From IMG/VR virus record IMGVR_UViG_3300045988_147571: 64,000 nt of DNA; one strand, 5' to 3'. Origin of the DNA: a virus. Below the pieces are notes generated by a model that worked only from the letters and a program-made list of their open reading frames with translations, was not told where the DNA came from and did no database searches. How positions within the stretch are numbered: position 1 is the stretch's first letter; every line of letters starts with the position of its first letter. Made by a program: the position numbers and the translations under genes. This document shows positions 1 to 61,098 of the stretch, piece by piece.

Positions 1-2127
1 ATTTACAATAAGGATCTGAACCGCTGCTAATAGAGCAGAACCACCAGAAATAATTGGAAATACCATACTTAAGATCAACAATGAAATGTTGATAGGCAAC
101 TGGAATTCAAGGAACATCATAATGTTATGCATAAATGTTCTACCAAGTTCCACTGCTTTTACTACACTTGCAAAGTTATTGTCTGTCAAAACAATATCTG
201 CTGCTTCTTTTGCTACATCAGATCCATCCTGCATTCCAAAGCCTACATCTGCTTTCTTTAATGCGGGAGCATCGTTCACACCGTCACCTGTCATTGCTAC
301 AGACATTCCAATTTCTTGTGCTAATGTTACAAGGCGAAGCTTCGTATTCGGTGAACATCTGGAAATTACCCTTAACTGTGGAATAATTTCTTTTACTTTT
401 ACATCTGACATTGCCTCAAACTCATCATTGGTAACTGCTAAGTCTCCGGGCTTATAAATGCCAGCTTCCATAGCAACAGCCTTAGCAGTCTCCATGCAAT
501 CGCCAGTAATTTCAATTACCTGAATTCCAGCTTTATGAGCAATTTTTACTGCTTCTGGAACTTCATTTCTAACCGGGTCAACAACTCCAATGACTCCAAG
601 GAAATTCATTTCATCAGGGAGGCCATCATCAGTTTTATCTGAGATAGTCAATGCAATACACCTCATTGCTTTCTCTGTTAATCCCTTAATATGGCTCTTT
701 AAAGCTTTTCGTTTCTCTTCTGTCAGCTCAACTACATTGCCATCATTATCAAGATAAGATTTGCATTTCTCAATTAATTTCTCCGGCGCACCTTTATAGG
801 CAGTAAAATCATTTGCTCCATTATTTAAAGTAACTGCAGAAAATTTATTTTCACTGCTAAATGGAACACGCTTCTTCATAGCAACTTTGTTTTGAATTGT
901 CAGTGCGTTTTCAGGAGAAAGCATATCAAGTACTGCTCGATCAATTGAGTTACCGCCAGTGATATTCCCATTAGAGTCAAACACTGCACTATTGTTCATG
1001 CAAATATTCAAATTGATTAACTCGTTGAGTGAACTTTCCTTATTAAAAATATCCTGACAATTACCGTTAATCATAACTGTAGAAGTCATTTCACCTGTTG
1101 TGAGAGTTCCTGTCTTATCTGTGCAAATTAAATTAACATATGCTAATTCAGGGATTTTACCAGTATTCTTCGCAAGGATATTGAATTTTTCCATTGTTGA
1201 TACATTCTGTTTAGTGACAAGCTTTACAATGAGTGGTAAGCCTTCTGGTACAGCCGCAACAATAATTGTTAATGCATTTGAGATATTCTGTGCTACTTTC
1301 TGAATATTTTCAAGAATGTTTCCTGAGAAATACTGACTTAAACCACCAGCATTTAAGATACCTGTAATTGTCATAACTACAAATGCCAATACTGCCGCAA
1401 TTGTTCCCCATTTTGAAATGAAATCACATAAATGATCTAAAGCCATGTCGAGCGCTGTCTTAGGTGGCTCTAAAGTCTGCATTTTAACTAAAGTGTCACC
1501 ATTAACTGTATTAGTTCCAACATCTGTAACAATCATTTTCCCTTCACCAGACATAATAACTGTTCCTGCAAAGAGAGAACACTGATCCGTATATGCAGCA
1601 GTAGATGTTGTTTTAACATGTTTATAATTAGCACTAGGAATTTTTCTACATTCTTTTGTCTCTCCATTGATAGCGGCATTATTAACAGAAATTTCTCCTT
1701 CAACAATAAAACCATCTGCAAAAATCTCTTGTCCAGTTCTCAATAGAACTAAATCACCTACTACCAGATCATCTTTATTAATTGTCTGTATGCTTCCATC
1801 TCGGACAACATCACAATATCTAACTGCCGTTTTTGCTCTTAACTCTGCTGCAGATTTCTGTATGCCTAGACCTGTCTTAATAGCAATTTCAGTAACAATA
1901 GCTAAAACTACTATAATCATTATAGGTTCAGAAAGAGACATTACTCCCATAGCTCCTAAAACTAACTGGAATAAAGCAATTATTATTAGAATCATAGTAA
2001 TTGGTTCAGTTAATGCTTCCTTAGCAAAATGATACCATTTTTTCAATTCAGGTTCCGGAAGTTTATTACTTCCATATGTAGTCCTACTAACCTCTACTTC
2101 GCTACTTTTTAATCCATTAAAATTCAT
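1..2127 (-). CDS. P-type cation-transporting ATPase (P2/Ca2+-type), C-terminal end cut by window edge
   Basis: Minus-strand frame is open from ATG (rc) at 2125-2127 to nt 1, so it is absent from the ORF track. My translation contains ICTDKTGTLT (rc of ~1100-1130), AAVPEGLPL (rc of ~1231-1257) and MTGDGVNDAPALKKADVGF (rc of ~240-300). The plus-strand ORFs 86-457, 135-386, 1100-1303 and 1667-2032 are antisense shadows. Confidence 0.93.
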   Translation of the reverse strand, partial: MNFNGLKSSEVEVSRTTYGSNKLPEPELKKWYHFAKEALTEPITMILIIIALFQLVLGAMGVMSLSEPIMIIVVLAIVTEIAIKTGLGIQKSAAELRAKTAVRYCDVVRDGSIQTINKDDLVVGDLVLLRTGQEIFADGFIVEGEISVNNAAINGETKECRKIPSANYKHVKTTSTAAYTDQCSLFAGTVIMSGEGKMIVTDVGTNTVNGDTLVKMQTLEPPKTALDMALDHLCDFISKWGTIAAVLAFVVMTITGILNAGGLSQYFSGNILENIQKVAQNISNALTIIVAAVPEGLPLIVKLVTKQNVSTMEKFNILAKNTGKIPELAYVNLICTDKTGTLTTGEMTSTVMINGNCQDIFNKESSLNELINLNICMNNSAVFDSNGNITGGNSIDRAVLDMLSPENALTIQNKVAMKKRVPFSSENKFSAVTLNNGANDFTAYKGAPEKLIEKCKSYLDNDGNVVELTEEKRKALKSHIKGLTEKAMRCIALTISDKTDDGLPDEMNFLGVIGVVDPVRNEVPEAVKIAHKAGIQVIEITGDCMETAKAVAMEAGIYKPGDLAVTNDEFEAMSDVKVKEIIPQLRVISRCSPNTKLRLVTLAQEIGMSVAMTGDGVNDAPALKKADVGFGMQDGSDVAKEAADIVLTDNNFASVVKAVELGRTFMHNIMMFLEFQLPINISLLILSMVFPIISGGSALLAAVQILIVN

Positions 2128-2129
2128 TC

Positions 2130-3164
2130 TTAAATCTCTCCTAATACAATTCTTTCATTGACAGACATTACAAATTCTTCTATAGCTTTATAATTTGGTT
2201 TATCAGGCAATGAGGTATTCTTTGAATCATACTCAAGTCTTTTCTCTAACTCGTTTACCATTTCAAAAAATTCTGGGATAGGCTGACTGTTTGCATCCAA
2301 ATATTCACCATTACGTAGAGCCATAAGAAGCTCATGATCATCTTCTCTATATGTAATAATTTTGCCTTTTTCAAGGATATCAAAGCACATAAGATACAAT
2401 CTCACTAAATGGCACATATGCTTTCCTAACTTGTTATGTTCTATGGCATGCTTATTTCTCTTCCCAATTTTGGAATAATCCCTAACAATGTTTTTCATTT
2501 CGGCCCACATCCCCTGATAATCATTCAAAGGATAGTGCTTCAACTGGATATCCATAAATACTTCTGTTTCATAATCTTCCTGACTACCTTTATCTACATA
2601 AAGCTTTATTGCATCTTCTGGAAAATTGAAATACTTTTCAGGGAAAGTATAAAAAGCATTCATAATACTATTAAGAACATGCTGCATTCTTTCTTCTTGC
2701 CCTAGCTTTCTAGCAGCTTTATTATCGAGCCTTCTTGATTGGTTTGTAGCATAGCCTCCAAAAGAATAGATCGCTTTCTTAGATAAAAACATTTCAGCAT
2801 TATCAAGAAGTTCTTGACCAATTGGATGAATATAAAGATAATGTTCTGGTTTCAATCCTATCAGCTCAATTGTGTTTGGGTTGCAGTTTGACAATAGAGT
2901 TATCAATTTATTAAAAGAATAGATTGTTGTATCTGTTGTCTCTTCCGTTACTTGCTCAAAATTGTGTGTAGAGATTAAAATTTCTTCTTTTTTATTTAAA
3001 GCACAACCTCTAATATCCAAATCAGAGTTTTCTGTATCTGTACCATAGGCATGAGACCCACCTAAACCTAATAGAATTATGTTACTCCCCAGGTGCTCAT
3101 TCACTCTTAAGAAATCATAGTGTTTACTTTTCAATAACTTTTTGATTTTCTCTATTTTCATCAA
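2130..3164 (-). CDS. pol-beta-fold nucleotidyltransferase (RNA-ligase-associated RlaP-like, from memory)
   Basis: 344-aa ORF. GLGGSHAYGTDTENSDLDIRG matches the G-S ... D-x-D minimal nucleotidyltransferase signature. Confidence 0.7.
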   Translation of the reverse strand: MMKIEKIKKLLKSKHYDFLRVNEHLGSNIILLGLGGSHAYGTDTENSDLDIRGCALNKKEEILISTHNFEQVTEETTDTTIYSFNKLITLLSNCNPNTIELIGLKPEHYLYIHPIGQELLDNAEMFLSKKAIYSFGGYATNQSRRLDNKAARKLGQEERMQHVLNSIMNAFYTFPEKYFNFPEDAIKLYVDKGSQEDYETEVFMDIQLKHYPLNDYQGMWAEMKNIVRDYSKIGKRNKHAIEHNKLGKHMCHLVRLYLMCFDILEKGKIITYREDDHELLMALRNGEYLDANSQPIPEFFEMVNELEKRLEYDSKNTSLPDKPNYKAIEEFVMSVNERIVLGEI

Positions 3165-3642
3165 TTTCTCCTGTTGAATAATAATAATTTACTATATCGT
3201 CTAAGTTCCTTATCTCTTTTTCTAACTCTGCACACTTTTTCTTGCTATCACATGCCCATAACTGTTTTCGTAGCTTCGTTGCAACCTCAGATACCTTTTC
3301 TGCTTCTTCTGTTTTATCAATGGTTTCTATGACATCAACTTCAATTGGTTCTCCGCAAAATGGACAGAATTTAAGAGGGTAATAATAGTCTTCAGGCCAT
3401 GTATCTTCCCAGTCTTGAACTTCTTCGCTTACATAAAAGAAAATTCCAAAAGTTTCATCAGTTTTATAGTCACAACCATGGCATTCTATAGTTTCACAAG
3501 TTCTACATAAATAGTTATCAGGATATTCATTAGAAATAACTATCCTAGGATTCTCTTCCAATGCTTTGCAACAGAATTTAGGTTTATAATATTTATAAGA
3601 TGTGTTTCCATCTACAATTATTTCCTTTGCTTTTATTTCCAT
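3124..3642 (-). CDS. hypothetical Cys-rich protein (zinc-ribbon-like)
   Basis: 172-aa ORF with CRTCETIECHGC and CPFCG clusters. Overlaps the downstream gene by 41 nt. Confidence 0.6.
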   Translation of the reverse strand: MEIKAKEIIVDGNTSYKYYKPKFCCKALEENPRIVISNEYPDNYLCRTCETIECHGCDYKTDETFGIFFYVSEEVQDWEDTWPEDYYYPLKFCPFCGEPIEVDVIETIDKTEEAEKVSEVATKLRKQLWACDSKKKCAELEKEIRNLDDIVNYYYSTGEIDENRENQKVIEK

Positions 3643-12381: not shown

Positions 12382-12463
12382 TCCACCCAGAGAGACTCGA
12401 ACTCTCACGCTATTAAGCATTAGAACCTAAATCTAACGTGTCTGCCAATTCCACCATGAGTGG
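12382..12463 (-). tRNA. tRNA-Leu (anticodon UAG), long variable arm
   Basis: Folded by hand (rc): CCACTCA TG GTG GAATTGGCAGA CAC G TTAGA TTTAGGT TCTAA [variable arm] GAGAG TTCGAGT CTCTC TGGGTGG A. No encoded CCA. Confidence 0.85.
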
Positions 12464-12651
12464 ATGTTGCTGACAGATTTTCATCTGCCAGCTTACTTAT
12501 GAAAAAAACGATTATATCTACATTTATTCACTACTTACCAGCCTTGTACAAACTAAGAGCCAAGTATAATCATGCTCATAAACTTTTACCAAGGATTTGA
12601 TAAATCTTTATTCTTTATGCTTTATTCTTTAATCTTTAAACTGGGATAAAC

Positions 12652-12700
12652 TTTGAATTTTGAATTTTAAGATTTGATATTTGAACTTTGAACTTTACAG
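12652..12700. repeat. seven tandem heptamers TTTGAAN
   Basis: TTTGAAT TTTGAAT TTTAAGA TTTGATA TTTGAAC TTTGAAC TTTACAG. Preceded by 2x CTTTATTCTTTA (12605-12630). Lies in the spacer between gene 12901-13539 and tRNA-Leu. Confidence 0.8.
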
Positions 12701-12900
12701 CAGGCTATCTGCCTCATCCAATAATATATATTAAGCTTACAGGTCCTATACGACCACGTAACCCTAATCCATTTTGTATTTTATACTATTATCTACTGTA
12801 TAAGTAATGCTGTGGTTTCTTTATTATTTTATATATGTCTAACCCAGCGAAAAGACATATAGATTATAGTTTAAAGTTTTCGATAAGCAGTGAATATGTA

Positions 12901-13539
12901 TTAATATGTAATTTCGATTTCTGTCAGAGAGTTACTTACTGAAAGTGCTGCATCTACTTCAGCAGTAAACTCTGCAATTTCTGTTTCTAAATCCTCCATT
13001 TCTTTAAGAACACCAATTGGATCAACAAGTTCCATTGTCTGAGCTTCTATGTAAGCTTCTCTAGTTTTTGTGAACTCTTCAGTAGAAGTTTTTCCCTCTT
13101 TACTACCATAGAGTCCAACAACATAATTTTCAGCCTTATCTTCCAATTTGCCATTCTCAGTTATGATCTGAGCCATGGCAGCATCATACTGTTTTTTGAT
13201 CTTCTGTTTTAAAAGCTTCTTGAAGTCCATTCCATGATTTTTCATTTCAATAGCTTCAGCTACTGTATACTCTTTATCAGCAACAGTGACCTTAGTTACT
13301 GCATTTGAAAGAACTACAGCTCTTTTAATAGCTTCTCTTCTCTTGATTAAGTCGGTTGCCTTATCATAAGAAGATTTCATAACCCCTGTGTAAACTTTAA
13401 TGTCCACACCTTTGACCTTAGTGTTAGAATGCTTATTTGAGATACAAGCCTCCACACTATTAATTGCTTTTACAATGCGGTCATCTAAGATTTTCAATTC
13501 CGCTAATGCTTTGTGTACATTCATTTTTTCTGTTGTCAT
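12901..13539 (-). CDS. hypothetical coiled-coil protein
   Basis: 212-aa ORF isolated inside the tRNA region. The N-terminal HKALAELKILDDRI pattern is vaguely DIP1984-like (weak, from memory). Confidence 0.6.
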   Translation of the reverse strand: MTTEKMNVHKALAELKILDDRIVKAINSVEACISNKHSNTKVKGVDIKVYTGVMKSSYDKATDLIKRREAIKRAVVLSNAVTKVTVADKEYTVAEAIEMKNHGMDFKKLLKQKIKKQYDAAMAQIITENGKLEDKAENYVVGLYGSKEGKTSTEEFTKTREAYIEAQTMELVDPIGVLKEMEDLETEIAEFTAEVDAALSVSNSLTEIEITY

Positions 13540-13783
13540 AATAAAGACCTCCTGAATTTTAAATTTTAATAGTTACTATTTTCTTTTGTTCAACAGTAAA
13601 CGCTACTTTACTGTCAGTTCTCTTATGAACTTCTTATCATTCATTTCTGATAAGATCATCCCTCATAACTGATGAATCAGTTGCTTTCGCAGTACAATCG
13701 CTTTACTACTATTCACGTTTTTTATATGTTTCTGGGATCATTGGGATTTAAACCAATTTTGTTACCATCTCAGGATCACAAAT

Positions 13784-13857
13784 ATGATAAGGATGGACTC
13801 GAACCACCGACCTCCGCCGTGACAGGGCGGCGCTCTAACCAACTGAGCTACTTATCA
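13784..13857 (-). tRNA. tRNA-Asp (anticodon GUC)
   Basis: rc: TGATAAG TA GCTC AGTTGGTTA GAGC G CCGCC CTGTCAC GGCGG AGGTC GGTGG TTCGAGT CCATC CTTATCA. Confidence 0.88.
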
Positions 13858-14078
13858 CTTTTCATGCATGACCTGTCATGCTGCAGTCATAACAGGATTA
13901 TGTGTTCTTTGATCAGCTCAATTCCCTACATTTTCTCTAAAGCTAGTACGTTTCTACTTTGGAAACAATCTCAAAATGTCACTGTCTTTCCAGTGCCATC
14001 TGATTTTACGTCCTAATCAGCAACGGCTCTTTCATATTGAAAATGGAGCTATAAAAGTCACTCCTTCGTCAGGAGAAA

Positions 14079-14152
14079 TGGAAACTCTGGGACTCGAACC
14101 CAGGACCGACCGGTTATGAGCCGGTTGCTCTAACCAACTGAGCTAAGTTTCC
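14079..14152 (-). tRNA. tRNA with CAU anticodon (elongator Met or Ile-lysidine type; not initiator-like)
   Basis: rc: GGAAACT TA GCTC AGTTGGTTA GAGC A ACCGG CTCATAA CCGGT CGGTC CTGGG TTCGAGT CCCAG AGTTTCC A. Lacks the three consecutive G-C pairs of initiator tRNAs. Confidence 0.88.
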
Positions 14153-14568
14153 ATAGTGGGTGAACTTTGAAAACACCCACATATAAAAACGTAACAACTA
14201 TAATGATTGATTTGTAATCTCACAACTACACGAACAATCGTCACCGTTCCTACACCCTCCAAGCTCTTATCGGAACCTCTGCATCCTCATCGTGGATTAC
14301 ATTTGCTCTTCACTAACTACACTCATGCATCACATGACTATTACCTTGCCTCAAACCTACACCTCGTCAGCTTAAGCACATCTATATAAATGTTTCGTAC
14401 ATCCAAACCATTACTACCAATGTACTGTGTTCCCTTCTTCGAACAGGTTCCAGTTATTAAACCATCCAAATTTTCACTTAAGTTTTATCTATGTTCGCCA
14501 TGAACATAAGTAGGTATACCTTAGTTCTAACAGTTACCTCTTTGGCCTTCAGAGTTAACTTAGAACTA

Positions 14569-14640
14569 CGGGGTAGATGGGGTTCGAACCCATGAATGCT
14601 GGAGTCAAATTCCAGAGCCTTACCGCTTGGCTACTACCCT
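14569..14640 (-). tRNA. tRNA-Gln (anticodon UUG)
   Basis: rc: AGGGTAG TA GCCAAGCGGTAAGGCT CTGGA ATTTGAC TCCAG CATTC ATGGG TTCGAAC CCCAT CTACCCC G. Closely parallels the E. coli tRNA-Gln layout, including an unpaired 1-72 position. Confidence 0.85.
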
Positions 14641-56223: not shown

Positions 56224-56511
56224 AGCGAAAGGCGAAGCCTGAGGTCTGAACACATGAAAGTTTTTTCAGCGCTACTTTCTACACTCGGCGGTTAAGCGCC
56301 TCGCCTAAAGCAGCTGCTTCTGAAAAAATTTTGCGTTCAGACGGTGATTGTTTTTTGTTACACCAAAAAAATATAGTAATTATTTTTTATATAAATAATA
56401 ATTATTGTTTTTTACAGGTGTAATAAATCCAACTCGAACTGATTGAACGAATGAGTGAAGCGAATGAGAGAAAGAAAGTAAGACCCTCATAGCTCGCTAC
56501 CAAAGAAAGGA

Positions 56512-58158
56512 ATGATTACAATAGCAAAGCAGAAAAAATGTAAAAGATACTTATTCAAGCTCCACAGTGAACGTCTTCGTAGATCACGCTGGAAGCTAGA
56601 ATATCCATTAGAGGAAGCTCTAAACACAGAAGACATTATTTCTCTGTCTGATAGCCAGATTCTTAGATTCATTGATGAACTCAACGGAGACACCAGTGAA
56701 GCCAGAGAAGAAGAAGCTTCTTATATAAAGAAAGAAATCAAGCGTCTCAAAAAATCTGATTCTTCTAAGAAAGATACTCTCATAGCAAATCTCTATAAAA
56801 GATTCTATAATCTTCAATTTGTTCCAGATTACATGTGCCTGATCATTGATAAAATGTCTGATTATGACAGAGCCAACAAAGGTTTCTCTATCAATGGAGT
56901 CAAATATCATAGGTTCCTAGGTACCAACGGGGGTATAAAAAATTCTACTATTGTTTATGTCTCTGAAAGACTATATCCCCAGCTCTATGAGCGTCTCTGC
57001 TGTGGCAGGAACCTAGAACAAAAATTTGTACCAGCTAAACTTGAAGCATATCAGGCTCTGATCTGTTCTGGCAGCATTCCAGTGAGTATGCCAAAAGGGG
57101 TTATAGTTGTCCCTGACTGCGTTACTCATTTTAAAGAAGACATTATTCGTGTGGATGATTCCCAGTCTGATGAACCAATAGTAGAATTCCTCAAGGACCA
57201 AGAAATAGAGCTTACAGAATCAGACGGTTACGGAATCATGCTTCCATCACTCTCTTACCGCTGGGCTAGAGAACTTGACGAAGAAGAAGATTTTTTATCT
57301 GGCTGTAATCTCAGAGGGCTTCCATGGACAAAGGGCATGGTTTTCACAATGGACTACTTAGCTTTTGGGGAATCTATAGCGAAAAACTTCTATATAAAAG
57401 ATGCCTGGGGAGATATGAGAGACATCAGAGAATCTGAATTGATTATTACTACTTCTATGCTTAAACTATGGGACTCCTACTCTTCTTTCGAAGATTACTG
57501 GTCCAACATAGAAAAATATCATTATCAGATATCTATAGCCAAGACTGCTCCTGCTAAATTGGATGAGTACAGAAGCACTAATTACCAGTTCCTGCAGAAT
57601 TACCATCTTACACCGGAAGAAGTAACTGAATTGGTCCGTCCTACAATAGAAGAAATTCAAGAAATCCTTGGATTAGATTACAGGAAGTCACTCCTATTCC
57701 TGAGAGGAACCAATCTAACAGAAGATTCCTACATTGATGAAGAGCCATATATCAACGCTCTCATGATTGAGCCGCAGATGATTCATGATCCCTACATCAG
57801 AGACAGAATCTACAATATGATAAAGAAAAAAATCAGGCAAGCCAAGATAGGCGTACTCAAAGTGAGAGGTAACTTTGCCATCATTGGTGGTGATCCGTAT
57901 AGCCTGATGCAGAGTATCTTTGGTTTGCCTGTTACAGGACTACTCCACTCTGGAGAATGTTGGCATAAACATTGGCTTGATCGAGGAGTCAGCGAGGTCT
58001 GCTGCTTCAGAGCACCTATGACAAGCAAATACAATGTGCGTAAGCTTAAGATAGTAGGGACTCCTGATATGACTTATTGGTACAGATATATAAATACATG
58101 TATGCTGCTGAATTCCTGGGATTCTACTGCGGAAGCCCTCAACGGCAGCGACAAGGAT
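56512..58158 (+). CDS. YonO/RdRP-like single-subunit RNA polymerase, exon 1 (549 codons)
   Basis: Ends ...AEALNGSDKD at the proposed 5' splice site (U at 58158). Joined to exon 2 it gives GSDKDGDLYF, i.e. a D-x-D-G-D metal-binding loop. Confidence 0.6.
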
Positions 58159-59149
58159 GAACAATCTCTGTCCTTGTAAAACTGGGTGAACTCGTACATG
58201 CGAGGTGTTTGGCATCAGCCAAGCTAACGGGGGACACTTATGAGTTTTGGTTGGCTTTTAAGCAATCCCGTGCTAAAAGTTATGGAATCTTTCTATATGG
58301 GAAGGAGAACCGAAATGAATGAATTAGTAAATACCACAGAACAGACACCAATAGAGATAGCTCTTGGTGTAGATGCAGATGGAATGACAACTGCTAAACA
58401 ACTTTATAAGTTTTTAGAATTAAATTCTACGAACTATAAACGCTGGACTACAAAGAATATAGTACAAAATCCTTACGGAGAAGAAAATGTTGATTATTTC
58501 CCATTCGTCCTTCATGACGAATGCGGTGGACAAGCTACTACTGATTACAAAATCACAGCAAACTTTGCTAAAAAGCTTTCCATGATGACTTCTTCTCCAA
58601 AAGGAGAAATTGCCAGAGAATATTTTCTTTCCTGTGAAAAAGTCATAAAAGAAAATATTGCTGCGCTAAAGAAGGAAAATCAGAAATTAAAACTGCTCAC
58701 TGTCAGTAAATCCCAGAAATTCTCTGCAATGTATCCTAAATTTGACTTACTGACAAAATCGCTACATATATCTATGAAAGAACTGTACAAGAAAATCTTC
58801 GACACAATGCAGTCTGAGCGTGGCATCGACTTAACAAGCAAGACACTTCAATACTGCTATGAGCATAATCTTTCAAACTGCTACACAATGACAGTTATAC
58901 AGGAAGATCCGCAGCTCTTCATATGTATGTACGAAATAGTTGATGATATGATTGCAAACTTAAAGTGATTTTTTACAAAGGGTTCCATAGCTTATGTGTA
59001 ACGACTATCGAAAGCATAGCTTAAGAGAAAGACTTAAGTGAAGAAGCAAGTAGAGTACTTTATAAGTGTAACTCTTATAGAGGAAGCGCCCAGTAGTATT
59101 ACTTTGGTAATAGAGGTATTACTAATGAGATAGTCTAGTATATAAATTG
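58159..59149 (+). mobile_element. group I intron (991 nt) carrying an ORF
   Basis: P1: exon ACAAGGAU (58151-58158) pairs with the internal guide GUCCUUGU (58170-58177), with the splice-site U opposite G. P7-like pairing GACTAT (59003-59008) / ATAGTC (59130-59135). The context TAACGACTATC ... GAGATAGTCT matches what I recall of the T4 td intron core. The last intron nt (59149) is G. Confidence 0.8.
58315..58968 (+). CDS. intron-encoded AntA/AntB-type (antirepressor-like DNA-binding) protein
   Basis: GGAAGGAGAA lies 5 nt before the ATG at 58315. TTDYKITANFAKKLSMMTSSPKGEIAREYFLSCEK resembles the AntA domain. No GIY-YIG/HNH/LAGLIDADG motif seen. Confidence 0.6.
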   Translation: MNELVNTTEQTPIEIALGVDADGMTTAKQLYKFLELNSTNYKRWTTKNIVQNPYGEENVDYFPFVLHDECGGQATTDYKITANFAKKLSMMTSSPKGEIAREYFLSCEKVIKENIAALKKENQKLKLLTVSKSQKFSAMYPKFDLLTKSLHISMKELYKKIFDTMQSERGIDLTSKTLQYCYEHNLSNCYTMTVIQEDPQLFICMYEIVDDMIANLK

Positions 59150-60235
59150 GGAGATTTATATTTTACAACCAACAATGAAATACTTTTGAAACATACAGAA
59201 AACTTACCACCAATCTACTGCATTCAGCGCAAAGGAAATAAGGTTGTCCCAACTGAAGCAGATATGATACAAGCTAACAAAGGATCTTTCGGTGATGCCA
59301 TTGGTTCTATTACTAATGTTATTACTTCACAGATATGTCTACAGGCAAGGTTCCCAAAAGACAGTGAGGAATATAAGGTCTTAGACTATAGGATACTGTG
59401 TGGACAAATGTTCCAGCAGAATGCTATTGATCGTGCTAAGGGAATTATTGCCAAACCTATGCCTAAGCACTGGTATGATAACAATTATAATCGCATAGAA
59501 GAATCAGATACACCGGAAGAAATAGCTAAAAAAGAATTCAATCAAAGGATCTGTGCAGATAAGAAGCCATACTTCTTCATCTATAACTACCCTACTCTCA
59601 TGAAGGAATACAAAGACTACATCAAAACTTCAGATGCCGTGAGTAGGTCCAGATTTAATATTCCTCTGGAAACATTGTTAGCTGCTGAAGAATTAACTGA
59701 AGAACAGGCAGAGTTTCTCAAATTCTATAAAGAGTTCTACCCAGTCAATGCAGAAACCTGTGTAGTTAATGAACTCTGTTGGGAAATTGAAAAGCAGCTT
59801 GCAGACGTAAAAGAAAGTAAGGTACCGTTTGACAGCTCTATTCTGAAGTCGGATGCCTCTTATACTGAAAATGAAAAGATGTTCATAGGATATATTTATG
59901 ACAAGTATAACAAAACCTATGCAAACAGAATGAGCCGCCACAGCTCTGTATATGAAGATACTTCTTTAACACCCATTGGGATGACTTTTGAATCAGAGTG
60001 TGCTGAATATGTGCCAAATGCAGAAAAGCTTTGCAACATTCTGGTTGACTTAGGATATAACACAAAAAAGGGTAAGACTTTCGTCTGGGAAATGTCCGGG
60101 GATACCATTATTGATAATCTTCTCTCTCGAACAGATGGTTATGCTCAGTTTCCTGTAAAGGATCCAGACGGTGATATAGAGTTTTGCGGTGAACACTTCT
60201 CAATGAAAAAAGTAAAAATGAAAGGCGAAGAATAA
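59150..60235 (+). CDS. YonO/RdRP-like single-subunit RNA polymerase, exon 2 (361 aa)
   Basis: Begins GDLYFTTNNE. The track ORF 59147-60235 only has a TTG one codon upstream and no SD. Confidence 0.6.
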   Translation, partial: GDLYFTTNNEILLKHTENLPPIYCIQRKGNKVVPTEADMIQANKGSFGDAIGSITNVITSQICLQARFPKDSEEYKVLDYRILCGQMFQQNAIDRAKGIIAKPMPKHWYDNNYNRIEESDTPEEIAKKEFNQRICADKKPYFFIYNYPTLMKEYKDYIKTSDAVSRSRFNIPLETLLAAEELTEEQAEFLKFYKEFYPVNAETCVVNELCWEIEKQLADVKESKVPFDSSILKSDASYTENEKMFIGYIYDKYNKTYANRMSRHSSVYEDTSLTPIGMTFESECAEYVPNAEKLCNILVDLGYNTKKGKTFVWEMSGDTIIDNLLSRTDGYAQFPVKDPDGDIEFCGEHFSMKKVKMKGEE

Positions 60236-61098
60236 TGGATTTAATACTCAATGAAAAACAATATGTAGAAAAAATGTTAGAACTTGGTGATTGCAGCCCT
60301 AAAGATTTAGGAGCAAACATAGCTCTTCTAACCAGATATATGTATCAGGAAAAATATACTCAGAAAGAAATTTATAATGGTATAGAAGAATTTGCTTCAA
60401 AAGTAGATTCTGATTTTGATATCAATAACTGGTACTCATTCATAGACAAATGTATCAGTAAAGCTAAGAAGAGAGATCTGTTGAACATTGACTATATACC
60501 TATTACGCAGAAAGAATTAGATACTATCAAGGAAATCAAGAATCCTGCCAGGGAAAGACTTGCATTCACTCTTTTAGTCATTGCCAAGTTTAATAATCTA
60601 AAATCAGAAACCAACAATAACTGGATCAATTATTCTATGGACGTATATTTCAACCTTGCCAGAGTAACTTGTAAAGTAGATGATCGTCCGTACATGATTT
60701 ATGACTTAAAGGAATTGGGGTTAGTTGAAGTGAGTAAAAAAATAACTCGCTTCAATATAAGAATCACATTTGTTGATAATGAGTCTGATCCGGTACTTAA
60801 AATTACAGATATGCGTGAATTGGGCTATCAATATCAGAACTTGGGTCCGAAGTCTAAAATAAAATTGTGTAAGCGCTGCGGGAAGCCTTATAAAGTAAAG
60901 AATTCCAAAGCAAGAAGTGCTTTCTGTTCCGACTGTCAGAGCCAAGTAGAATCAAAACCAAAAGTCATCAAATGTGAATGTTGCGGGAAAGATTTTTTAA
61001 CTTCTCCTTATAACACTCGTGCAACATTGTGTATACAGTGTCATACACTTCAAAGGAATGAATTAAATAAACTTGCCATGCGTAAAAGACGACAGTAA
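60235..61098 (+). CDS. hypothetical protein with C-terminal zinc fingers
   Basis: 287 aa. CKRCGKPY...CSDCQ...CECCGKDF...CIQCH. ATGA-type overlap with the polymerase stop. Confidence 0.6.
   Translation: MDLILNEKQYVEKMLELGDCSPKDLGANIALLTRYMYQEKYTQKEIYNGIEEFASKVDSDFDINNWYSFIDKCISKAKKRDLLNIDYIPITQKELDTIKEIKNPARERLAFTLLVIAKFNNLKSETNNNWINYSMDVYFNLARVTCKVDDRPYMIYDLKELGLVEVSKKITRFNIRITFVDNESDPVLKITDMRELGYQYQNLGPKSKIKLCKRCGKPYKVKNSKARSAFCSDCQSQVESKPKVIKCECCGKDFLTSPYNTRATLCIQCHTLQRNELNKLAMRKRRQ

Follow-up and report, generated by a model that had tools for sequence, protein, structure and literature searches.

We examined a 64,000-nucleotide (nt) stretch of viral DNA (IMG/VR record IMGVR_UViG_3300045988_147571; hereafter the window), in which a gene for a YonO-like single-subunit RNA polymerase is interrupted by a 991-nt insert with the features of an IA2-like group I intron. 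All parts of this locus lie on the plus strand. Exon 1 (positions 56512–58158) comprises codons 1–549 and ends ...SDKD; the insert occupies 58159–59149 and exactly separates codon 549 (GAT) from codon 550 (GGA) in the 910-amino-acid (aa) gene; and exon 2 (59150–60235), the first 6 nt of which take part in the P10 pairing, supplies codons 550–910 plus the stop and begins GDLYF. Within the intron lies a 217-aa open reading frame (ORF) at 58315–58968. An original prediction, made by inspection of the sequence, had placed a group I intron here, and the reading frames are as it described. The unspliced exon-1 ORF (56512–58179) terminates ...ALNGSDKD-EQSLSL; the downstream frame (59150–60235) begins GDLYFTT, has TTG at 59147 as its sole possible start and has no Shine-Dalgarno sequence upstream; and joining GAT (58156–58158) to GGA (59150–59152) gives ...SDKD/GDLYF... 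in a 910-aa product (here and below a slash marks the junction).

The precision of the insertion in the polymerase gene is evident from alleles that lack it, which are contiguous across 58158/59150. The intron-less homolog P0001 is 92% identical, and its contig (L006; other loci are likewise cited by L numbers where they must be told apart) aligns to window positions 56405–58152 and then directly to 59150–59856. Eight further IMG/VR loci with 92–96% identity are also uninterrupted and read GCCGACTGCGAT/GGAGATTTAATG. The spliced junction predicted for the window is GACAAGGAU/GGAGAUUUA (junction 30-mer GCAGCGACAAGGATGGAGATTTATATTTTA). An intein, a group II intron and translational bypass were also considered as accounts of the insert, and were ruled out by the in-frame stops, the group I hallmarks and the 991-nt length.

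The interrupted motif is the catalytic Asp triad, as had been proposed. When the spliced protein is compared by BLASTP with YonO of phage SPbeta (E = 3e-25, residues 119–656), DKD/GD lies opposite DNDGD; SPbeta YonO is a proven RNA polymerase that needs its Asp triad for activity (PMC5467207). The insert falls within DxDGD, between the second Asp and the Gly, and so divides the metal-binding loop of an essential-type enzyme. A match to the Pfam RdRP family (PF05183; 28.4 bits against a cut-off of 23.8, residues 120–574, junction included) is obtained with the joined protein only; neither unspliced half alone matches any Pfam family. The spliced protein has more than 4,000 homologs, mostly uninterrupted and 900–950 aa long, many of them with PF05183; a PDB sequence search with it returned chance matches only. 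Both exons are under strong purifying selection, with ratios of nonsynonymous to synonymous substitution (dN/dS) of ~0.03–0.05 (~0.03 for exon 1 against relatives). GenBank annotations, gene callers and PHROGs (25339 and 35857) treat the exon halves as separate hypothetical proteins, and such split annotation is found in the cultured-phage GenBank records of Clostridium phage c-st (CST179/CST178; L046) and Enterocloster phages CB457P2 (L047) and CB473P3 (L048). We also note that directly 3′ of exon 2, at 60235–61098 (plus strand), lies a gene for a 287-aa protein rich in Cys-x-x-Cys zinc-ribbon motifs, which matches PHROG 30716 and, weakly, an HNH-endonuclease PHROG. Its positional equivalent in c-st, CST177, is annotated as a C-terminal part of YonO, so the polymerase may extend into this downstream gene.

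Both ends of the insert carry group I splice-site elements. The last eight bases of exon 1, ACAAGGAU (58151–58158), are fully complementary to the internal guide sequence GUCCUUGU (58170–58177), forming a P1 of 8 base pairs (bp) in which U58158, the 5′ splice-site U, faces G58170; the TAA stop of the exon-1 frame is at 58177–58179. Guide and exon codon change together: guide GUCCUUGU is combined with exon GACAAGGAU (DKD, codon AAG) in the window and in 10 relatives (L010, L050–L054, L011, L079, L081 and L082), and guide GUCAC with exon GAUUGUGAU (DCD, codon UGU) in L007, L009, L012 and L037. Between the 5′ splice site and the guide, AUCUCU (58164–58169) is complementary over 6 bp to GGAGAU at the start of exon 2 (59150–59155), and every relative has a P10 of 4–6 bp. 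The insert ends in G (59149), the terminal or omega G, as do the introns of all relatives. P1, this final G and the two P7 strands (GACTAT at 59003–59008 and ATAGTC at 59130–59135) had all been picked out in the original prediction, and each is present as described.

Between these ends lies a td-like IA2 core. It opens with the P3 5′ strand CUGGGUG (58182–58188), which is 100% paired, has double changes in four of its seven pairs and recurs in the introns of other genes. Two hairpins follow in the P3–P4 interval, hairpin A (CUCGU-ACAU-GCGAG, 58191–58204), which is conserved in the intron class, and hairpin B (UUGGC-AUCA-GCCAA, 58209–58222), each with compensatory changes in four of five pairs. 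J3/4 (CUA) and the P4 5′ strand ACGGGG (58227–58232) together span 58224–58232 and match td; P4 is 100% paired with two compensatory pairs, and its 3′ strand UCCCGU (58266–58271) lies inside the td-like string AAUCCCGUGCUAAA. The P5 hairpin (58237–58262), found in the minimum-energy fold and backed by covariation within the clade, separates the two P4 strands, and a 13-bp P6 (58277–58289 with 58981–58993) closes around the ORF.

On the 3′ side of the ORF, the P7 5′ strand GACUAU (59003–59008) is preceded by J6/7 GUAAC and followed by hairpins P7.1 (59020–59038, three of six pairs compensatory) and P7.2 (59058–59082, five of nine). Then come the P3 3′ strand CGCCCAG (59087–59093), a bipartite P8 hairpin (59094–59124; four of the five outer-stem pairs compensatory) and the P7 3′ strand AUAGUC (59130–59135), which sits inside the J8/7–P7′ string GAGAUAGUCU and is separated by 13 nt from the terminal G. 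P3 is limited to 7 bp, as an eighth pair would collide with P8; its strands are ~900 nt apart in the genome, and the same pairing recurs with other sequences in introns of other genes. P7 is invariant and therefore neutral with regard to covariation, and its motifs match the Rfam consensus and td. P7.1 and P7.2 are 98–100% paired across the introns. Their presence between P7 and P3′ is a hallmark of subgroup IA (PMC3984707), and together with the td likeness it places the window intron in that subgroup.

Ten introns from this site were aligned with their ORFs deleted, and covariation was measured across 66 pairs, against controls in which the pairing partners were slid by 1–3 columns and against 500 shuffles. 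Paired cells amount to 93.4% (36–45% in the slid controls), double changes are found in 32 of the 66 pairs (5–8 in the controls) and the covariation score is 0.391 (0.08–0.09). None of the 500 shuffles reached the observed percentage paired, the double-change counts (by pairs or by cells) or the covariation score; the count of further pair types was not above the shuffles (231/500). The minimum-energy fold of the ORF-deleted window intron recovers P1, P3, P4, P5, P6, P7.1 and P7.2 with z = −4.8, and not one of 100 shuffles folded as well.

Nucleotide similarity ties the 3′ core to introns in other genes. When window positions 56400–60300 were compared with 50,697 phage records, matches were confined to 58996–59089, and a blastn search of the same records with the 5′ ribozyme half gave nothing useful. 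In all five matching records examined, the similarity maps to a stretch without annotation that separates the two parts of a split gene; in three, an ORF annotated as HNH or homing endonuclease lies just 5′ of it. The split gene is nrdA in Vibrio, nrdD in Fusobacterium and DNA polymerase in Bacillus phages Moonbeam and NotTheCreek and in Yersinia phage phiR1-37. A covariance model built from the 142-nt 3′ core (R1) scores 67–105 bits on these independent introns; scanned over the window it finds no second intron of this kind (best other match 15 bits, E = 0.27). Fusobacterium phage phiKSUM (L005) has two matches to the 3′-core model inside its split nrdD (2501–2633 and 3073–3198), which implies two introns there. 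The layout P3, GUGAAC, hairpin A, GGUGU, hairpin B, CUAAC, P4 (window 58189–58226; L002 1402–1448; L005 2380–2433) is likewise common across host genes and phage groups. An Rfam covariance search, named in the original prediction as a check and, should it find no match, as part of a refutation, gave a mixed outcome: relatives score higher than the window with Intron_gpI (RF00028), namely Yersinia L004 with 63.4 (above the threshold), L009 with 47.9, L007 with 47.7 and the ORF-less L082 with 28.7 bits (E = 7e-5), and the window itself reaches only 14.3 bits (E = 0.88), below the 50-bit threshold.

The intron ORF (58315–58968) follows a Shine-Dalgarno sequence of its own, GGAAGGAGAA (58300–58309), and lies in the P6 loop. 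It had been described as AntA-like and not a recognizable homing endonuclease, and this description survives database and structure searches. The ORF matches Pfam AntA/AntB (PF08346; 52.4 bits against a cut-off of 27, residues 27–92) and an anti-repressor Ant PHROG (6.9e-18), and its N-terminal ~130 residues are 55–65% identical to ordinary prophage AntA/AntB proteins of Clostridia. An AlphaFold model (predicted local distance difference test, pLDDT, 79.7) begins with a winged-helix N-domain, continues in a long helix and ends in a C-terminal helical bundle that is modeled with confidence. Foldseek comparison of this model with the PDB gave nothing below E = 0.2, the best weak matches being forkhead and MarR winged helices; among viral models its neighbors are antirepressor, KilA-N, KilAC and MSV199-type DNA-binding proteins. 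Pfam, NCBIfam and PHROGs revealed neither a nuclease motif nor a nuclease family, NCBIfam giving no match of any sort, and a PDB sequence search with the ORF profile returned chance matches only. A scan for promoters and terminators found no more than shuffles did, and no clear promoter for the ORF inside the intron.

The full-length relatives of this ORF form a distinct group with 46–100% identity, in which the exons are 70–100% identical at the protein level. All seven full-length homologs whose context was read reside in this intron at this site; the next group of homologs, with ~38% identity, is free-standing. Seven diverged introns all keep the ORF intact, and its dN/dS is 0.04–0.08. The divergence of the ORF does not track that of the exons: between the window and L050 the synonymous divergence (dS) is 0.94 in the ORF and 0.33 in the exons (~3-fold), and L010 has exons that are 98% identical and an ORF that is 71% identical. 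L012 is a mosaic that joins an HNH-type 5′ ribozyme end to an AntA ORF. The mismatch in divergence and this mosaic point to recombination between introns.

In related genomes the DxD/GD site exists in four states: empty, with an ORF-less intron, with an HNH intron (the gene lying in either of two loops) and with the AntA intron. Among genes that are 92–97% identical, 9 are intron-less and ~19 have the HNH-type intron; the AntA type comes from other datasets. The ~19 loci, all in IMG/VR, carry a 993-nt intron at the same phosphodiester bond, with a homologous ribozyme and an HNH_3 ORF in the P5 loop. HNH-like ORFs occupy the P6 loop in L081 and L049, and the introns of L082 (295 nt) and L048 (433 nt) are ORF-less. 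With ORFs deleted, the introns of L007, L009, L011 and L012 are 65–72% identical to that of the window; for L081, L049, L082 and L048, the case for homology is built on core motifs in common and on model hits. The c-st gene has a 317-nt insert at the same site, and neither Rfam nor R1 matches it or the first L048 insert. A scan of genome_contigs found siblings at the same site in L079, L081 and L082 (L080 is a chance match). These three are Ruminococcus and Clostridia metagenome-assembled genomes, from rumen, buffalo caecum and rabbit. They too combine guide GUCCUUGU with a DKD exon, and the assignment of the genomes to Clostridia points to Clostridia as hosts of this phage group. In the literature we found no paper that describes introns in YonO-like genes. 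The four-state series offers a natural comparison for intron gain and for the swap and loss of cargo.

Several other observations concern the same site and gene. The intron-less alleles (L015–L021, L042 and L006) all read GCCGACTGCGAT/GGAGATTTAATG, and the alleles with the HNH intron (L007 and L022–L041) read GCTGATTGTGAT/GGAGACTTAATG; the three synonymous differences, all within ±9 nt of the site, are consistent with co-conversion, with P1/P10 matching or with nuclease resistance. L045 (IMGVR_UViG_3300029369_000210, 2527–3363) is a deletion variant: it lacks polymerase exon 1 and the 5′ half of the ribozyme, and its upstream Bro-N gene continues as a fusion into the 3′ end of the intron HNH ORF. 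A second intron hot spot of YonO-like genes is located around residue 643 (QQNxxD/xxKG), where the window is uninterrupted (~59430). Introns there occur in L011 (2513–2795), L048 (2716–3177), L047 (~2023–3144) and L082 (3802–4845); ORF-less introns are among them, and one has a GIY-YIG ORF.

The locus combines a precise insertion with a conserved and covarying fold; the site is polymorphic for the presence of an intron, and exons and ORF alike are under purifying selection. From its sequence, the insert is very probably a functional td-like group I intron, the predicted splicing of which rebuilds the DKDGD active site. Several points weigh against this interpretation or parts of it. Splicing of the window intron is itself a prediction from sequence. 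An Rfam scan of the whole window found none of 4,227 families at its gathering score within the intron and no Intron_gpI match; the proven T4 introns td (40.3 bits) and nrdB (35.7 bits), run as positive controls, are also below the 50-bit threshold, so such a miss is not a valid refutation for this class. The Rfam alignment is broken by the 0.7-kb ORF in P6 and probably by the extra hairpins, and a study of Bastillevirinae introns met the same partial-hit behavior (PMC11878797). The hairpins P2 and P9 are missing throughout the window clade (window, L010, L050–L052, L053 and L054); P9 is kept in L007, L009, L011 and L012, and P2 in L007, L009 and L012 but not L011. Their loss could mean that splicing in this lineage is poor or depends on a cofactor. 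None of the six known homing-endonuclease families (PMC3984707) includes the ORF, and no structural neighbor of it is nuclease-like, which leaves active mobility without an evident mechanism. By an exact-pattern scan for the window-type 5′ end, which gave no match, the AntA-type intron is absent from IMG/VR, and a scan of IMG/VR for an intron-less DKD allele (GACAAGGATGGAGAYTT) gave 23 matches, none of them in a YonO-like gene.

Might the insert be a dead intron, leaving a permanently split gene or a pseudogene in which an AntA insert is flanked by ribozyme remains? The indirect nature of the splicing evidence, the weak Rfam score of the window, the missing P2 and P9 and the separate treatment of the two halves by gene callers and PHROGs would fit that picture, but we consider it very improbable. 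The break lies inside the Asp triad, which is needed in one chain (PMC5467207). Exon 2 lacks a Shine-Dalgarno sequence and could start only from TTG, purifying selection on both exons is strong, and P1 and P10 are still matched to the exon sequence. Within the clade that lacks P2 and P9, moreover, paired cells amount to 97.9% and double changes are seen in 19 of 87 pairs (1–3 in slid controls), and this ongoing compensation indicates that the ribozyme structure is still under selection. The same loss of P2 and P9, and the conservation of an ORF bound to the intron, could also be explained if the ORF product were a maturase-like splicing cofactor that stabilizes the reduced ribozyme. LAGLIDADG maturases derived from DNA-binding intron proteins are known; phage group I introns are not known to have a maturase. 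L011 and L012 carry the same ORF family and keep P9, L012 keeps P2 as well, and the fold is that of a DNA-binding winged helix, which makes this role improbable, if somewhat less so than a dead intron.

A more serious contender, though still an unlikely one, is that the ORF is a mobility factor, either a seventh and unrecognized class of homing endonuclease or a DNA-targeting subunit for a nuclease supplied in trans, the candidates for which would be HNH enzymes encoded by sibling introns and a free-standing endonuclease. Its restriction to this intron in all seven homologs read in context (46–100% identical), the strong purifying selection (dN/dS 0.04–0.08), the divergence decoupled from that of the exons in L010 and L050, and its position in the loop that holds HNH genes in L081 and L049 all suit such a role, and the mosaic ribozyme backbone of L012 indicates horizontal exchange. 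Against it stand the lack of any nuclease motif or domain in Pfam, NCBIfam and PHROGs and of any PDB sequence relative, Foldseek neighbors that are exclusively winged-helix, KilA-N and antirepressor DNA-binding proteins, and an N-domain 55–65% identical to ordinary prophage AntA. Most likely the ORF is a selected, non-nuclease DNA-binding cargo, for example an antirepressor-like regulator, and not a homing endonuclease. It may have displaced an HNH gene from the P6 loop, the position that such genes have in L081 and L049.

If the insert is a functional intron with such a cargo, the gene would be transcribed as a single pre-mRNA, in which the ribozyme would fold around its P3–P8 core with P6 closed over the 0.7-kb ORF loop. 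Free guanosine would attack after U58158, presented by P1, and the 3′-OH of exon 1 would then attack after G59149, with exon 2 aligned by P10. The outcome would be restoration of ...SDKDGDLYF... in a functional 910-aa polymerase, and the 217-aa ORF would be translated from its own Shine-Dalgarno sequence. The intron could persist and spread through vertical descent and through recombination in co-infections; the HNH endonucleases of sibling introns, targeting the same site in intron-less genomes, may help it to spread, and alleles carrying the AntA intron are presumably immune to those enzymes.

Intron ORFs are usually expected to be homing endonucleases or to decay, and a selected non-nuclease ORF that is tied to its intron is an exception. 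This one would be either a new mobility protein or the cargo of an intron domesticated as a gene carrier; on a gentler reading, phage introns may serve as stable carriers of selected non-nuclease regulatory genes. Recognition of the intron also recovers the real 910-aa enzyme from YonO-type genes that are annotated as two or three unrelated hypothetical proteins. Elsewhere in the window, a RAGATH-27 RNA motif lies on the minus strand at 12808–12894 (87 bits against a gathering score of 76.1), among four tRNA genes in a cluster at 12382–14640 (minus strand).

The closest well-known counterpart is the T4 td intron (IA2, encoding I-TevI), whose likeness the original prediction had pointed out. 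Checked against the T4 genome, the core strings are nearly the same: td has ..UAAACGGGG.., ..ACAAUCCCGUGCUAAA.., ..CUAACGACUAUC.. and ..GAGAUAUAGUCU.., and the window counterparts (J3/4–P4, P4′–J6, J6/7–P7 and J8/7–P7′) are ..CUAACGGGGG.., ..GCAAUCCCGUGCUAAA.., ..GUAACGACUAUC.. and ..GAGAUAGUCU... Like the window intron, td interrupts a phage protein-coding gene, has P7.1 and P7.2 between P7 and P3′, carries an ORF with its own ribosome-binding site in the P6 loop, and is under-scored by Rfam. It differs in having P2 and an elaborate P9 region, both missing from the window, in having no hairpins between P3 and J3/4, where the window has A and B, and in its cargo, which is a GIY-YIG nuclease in td and an AntA-family winged-helix protein here.

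The introns in DNA polymerase, nrdA and nrdD genes of Bacillus (Bastillevirinae), Vibrio, Yersinia and Fusobacterium phages share 3′-core nucleotide homology with the window, and those of Moonbeam DNA polymerase and phiKSUM nrdD have the same P3/hairpin A/hairpin B/P4 layout. Splicing has been demonstrated for members of this group (PMC11878797). The introns interrupt other host genes, and their cargo is an endonuclease of the HNH, GIY-YIG, LAGLIDADG or VSR type (PMC11878797, Table 2) and not AntA. Introns are also known in the multi-subunit polymerase genes of jumbo phages (PMC2919709, PMC11620839). The putative group I intron associated with PhiPA3 gp210, compared here by its description, resembles ours in following directly upon conserved catalytic-region aspartates of a phage two-barrel RNA polymerase (PMC11620839), but its host is a multi-subunit β-subunit gene and its product is a proven HNH nicking endonuclease active in phage–phage competition. 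The same-site siblings (L007, L009 and the ~19 loci, L081, L049, L082 and L048) share the insertion point and the P1/P10 logic of the window intron; unlike it, most keep P9, those with a DCD exon also keep P2, and their cargo is HNH or none. Although the ribozyme class is known, the YonO-type host gene, the multi-state hot spot in the Asp triad and, above all, the conserved non-endonuclease cargo are new here.

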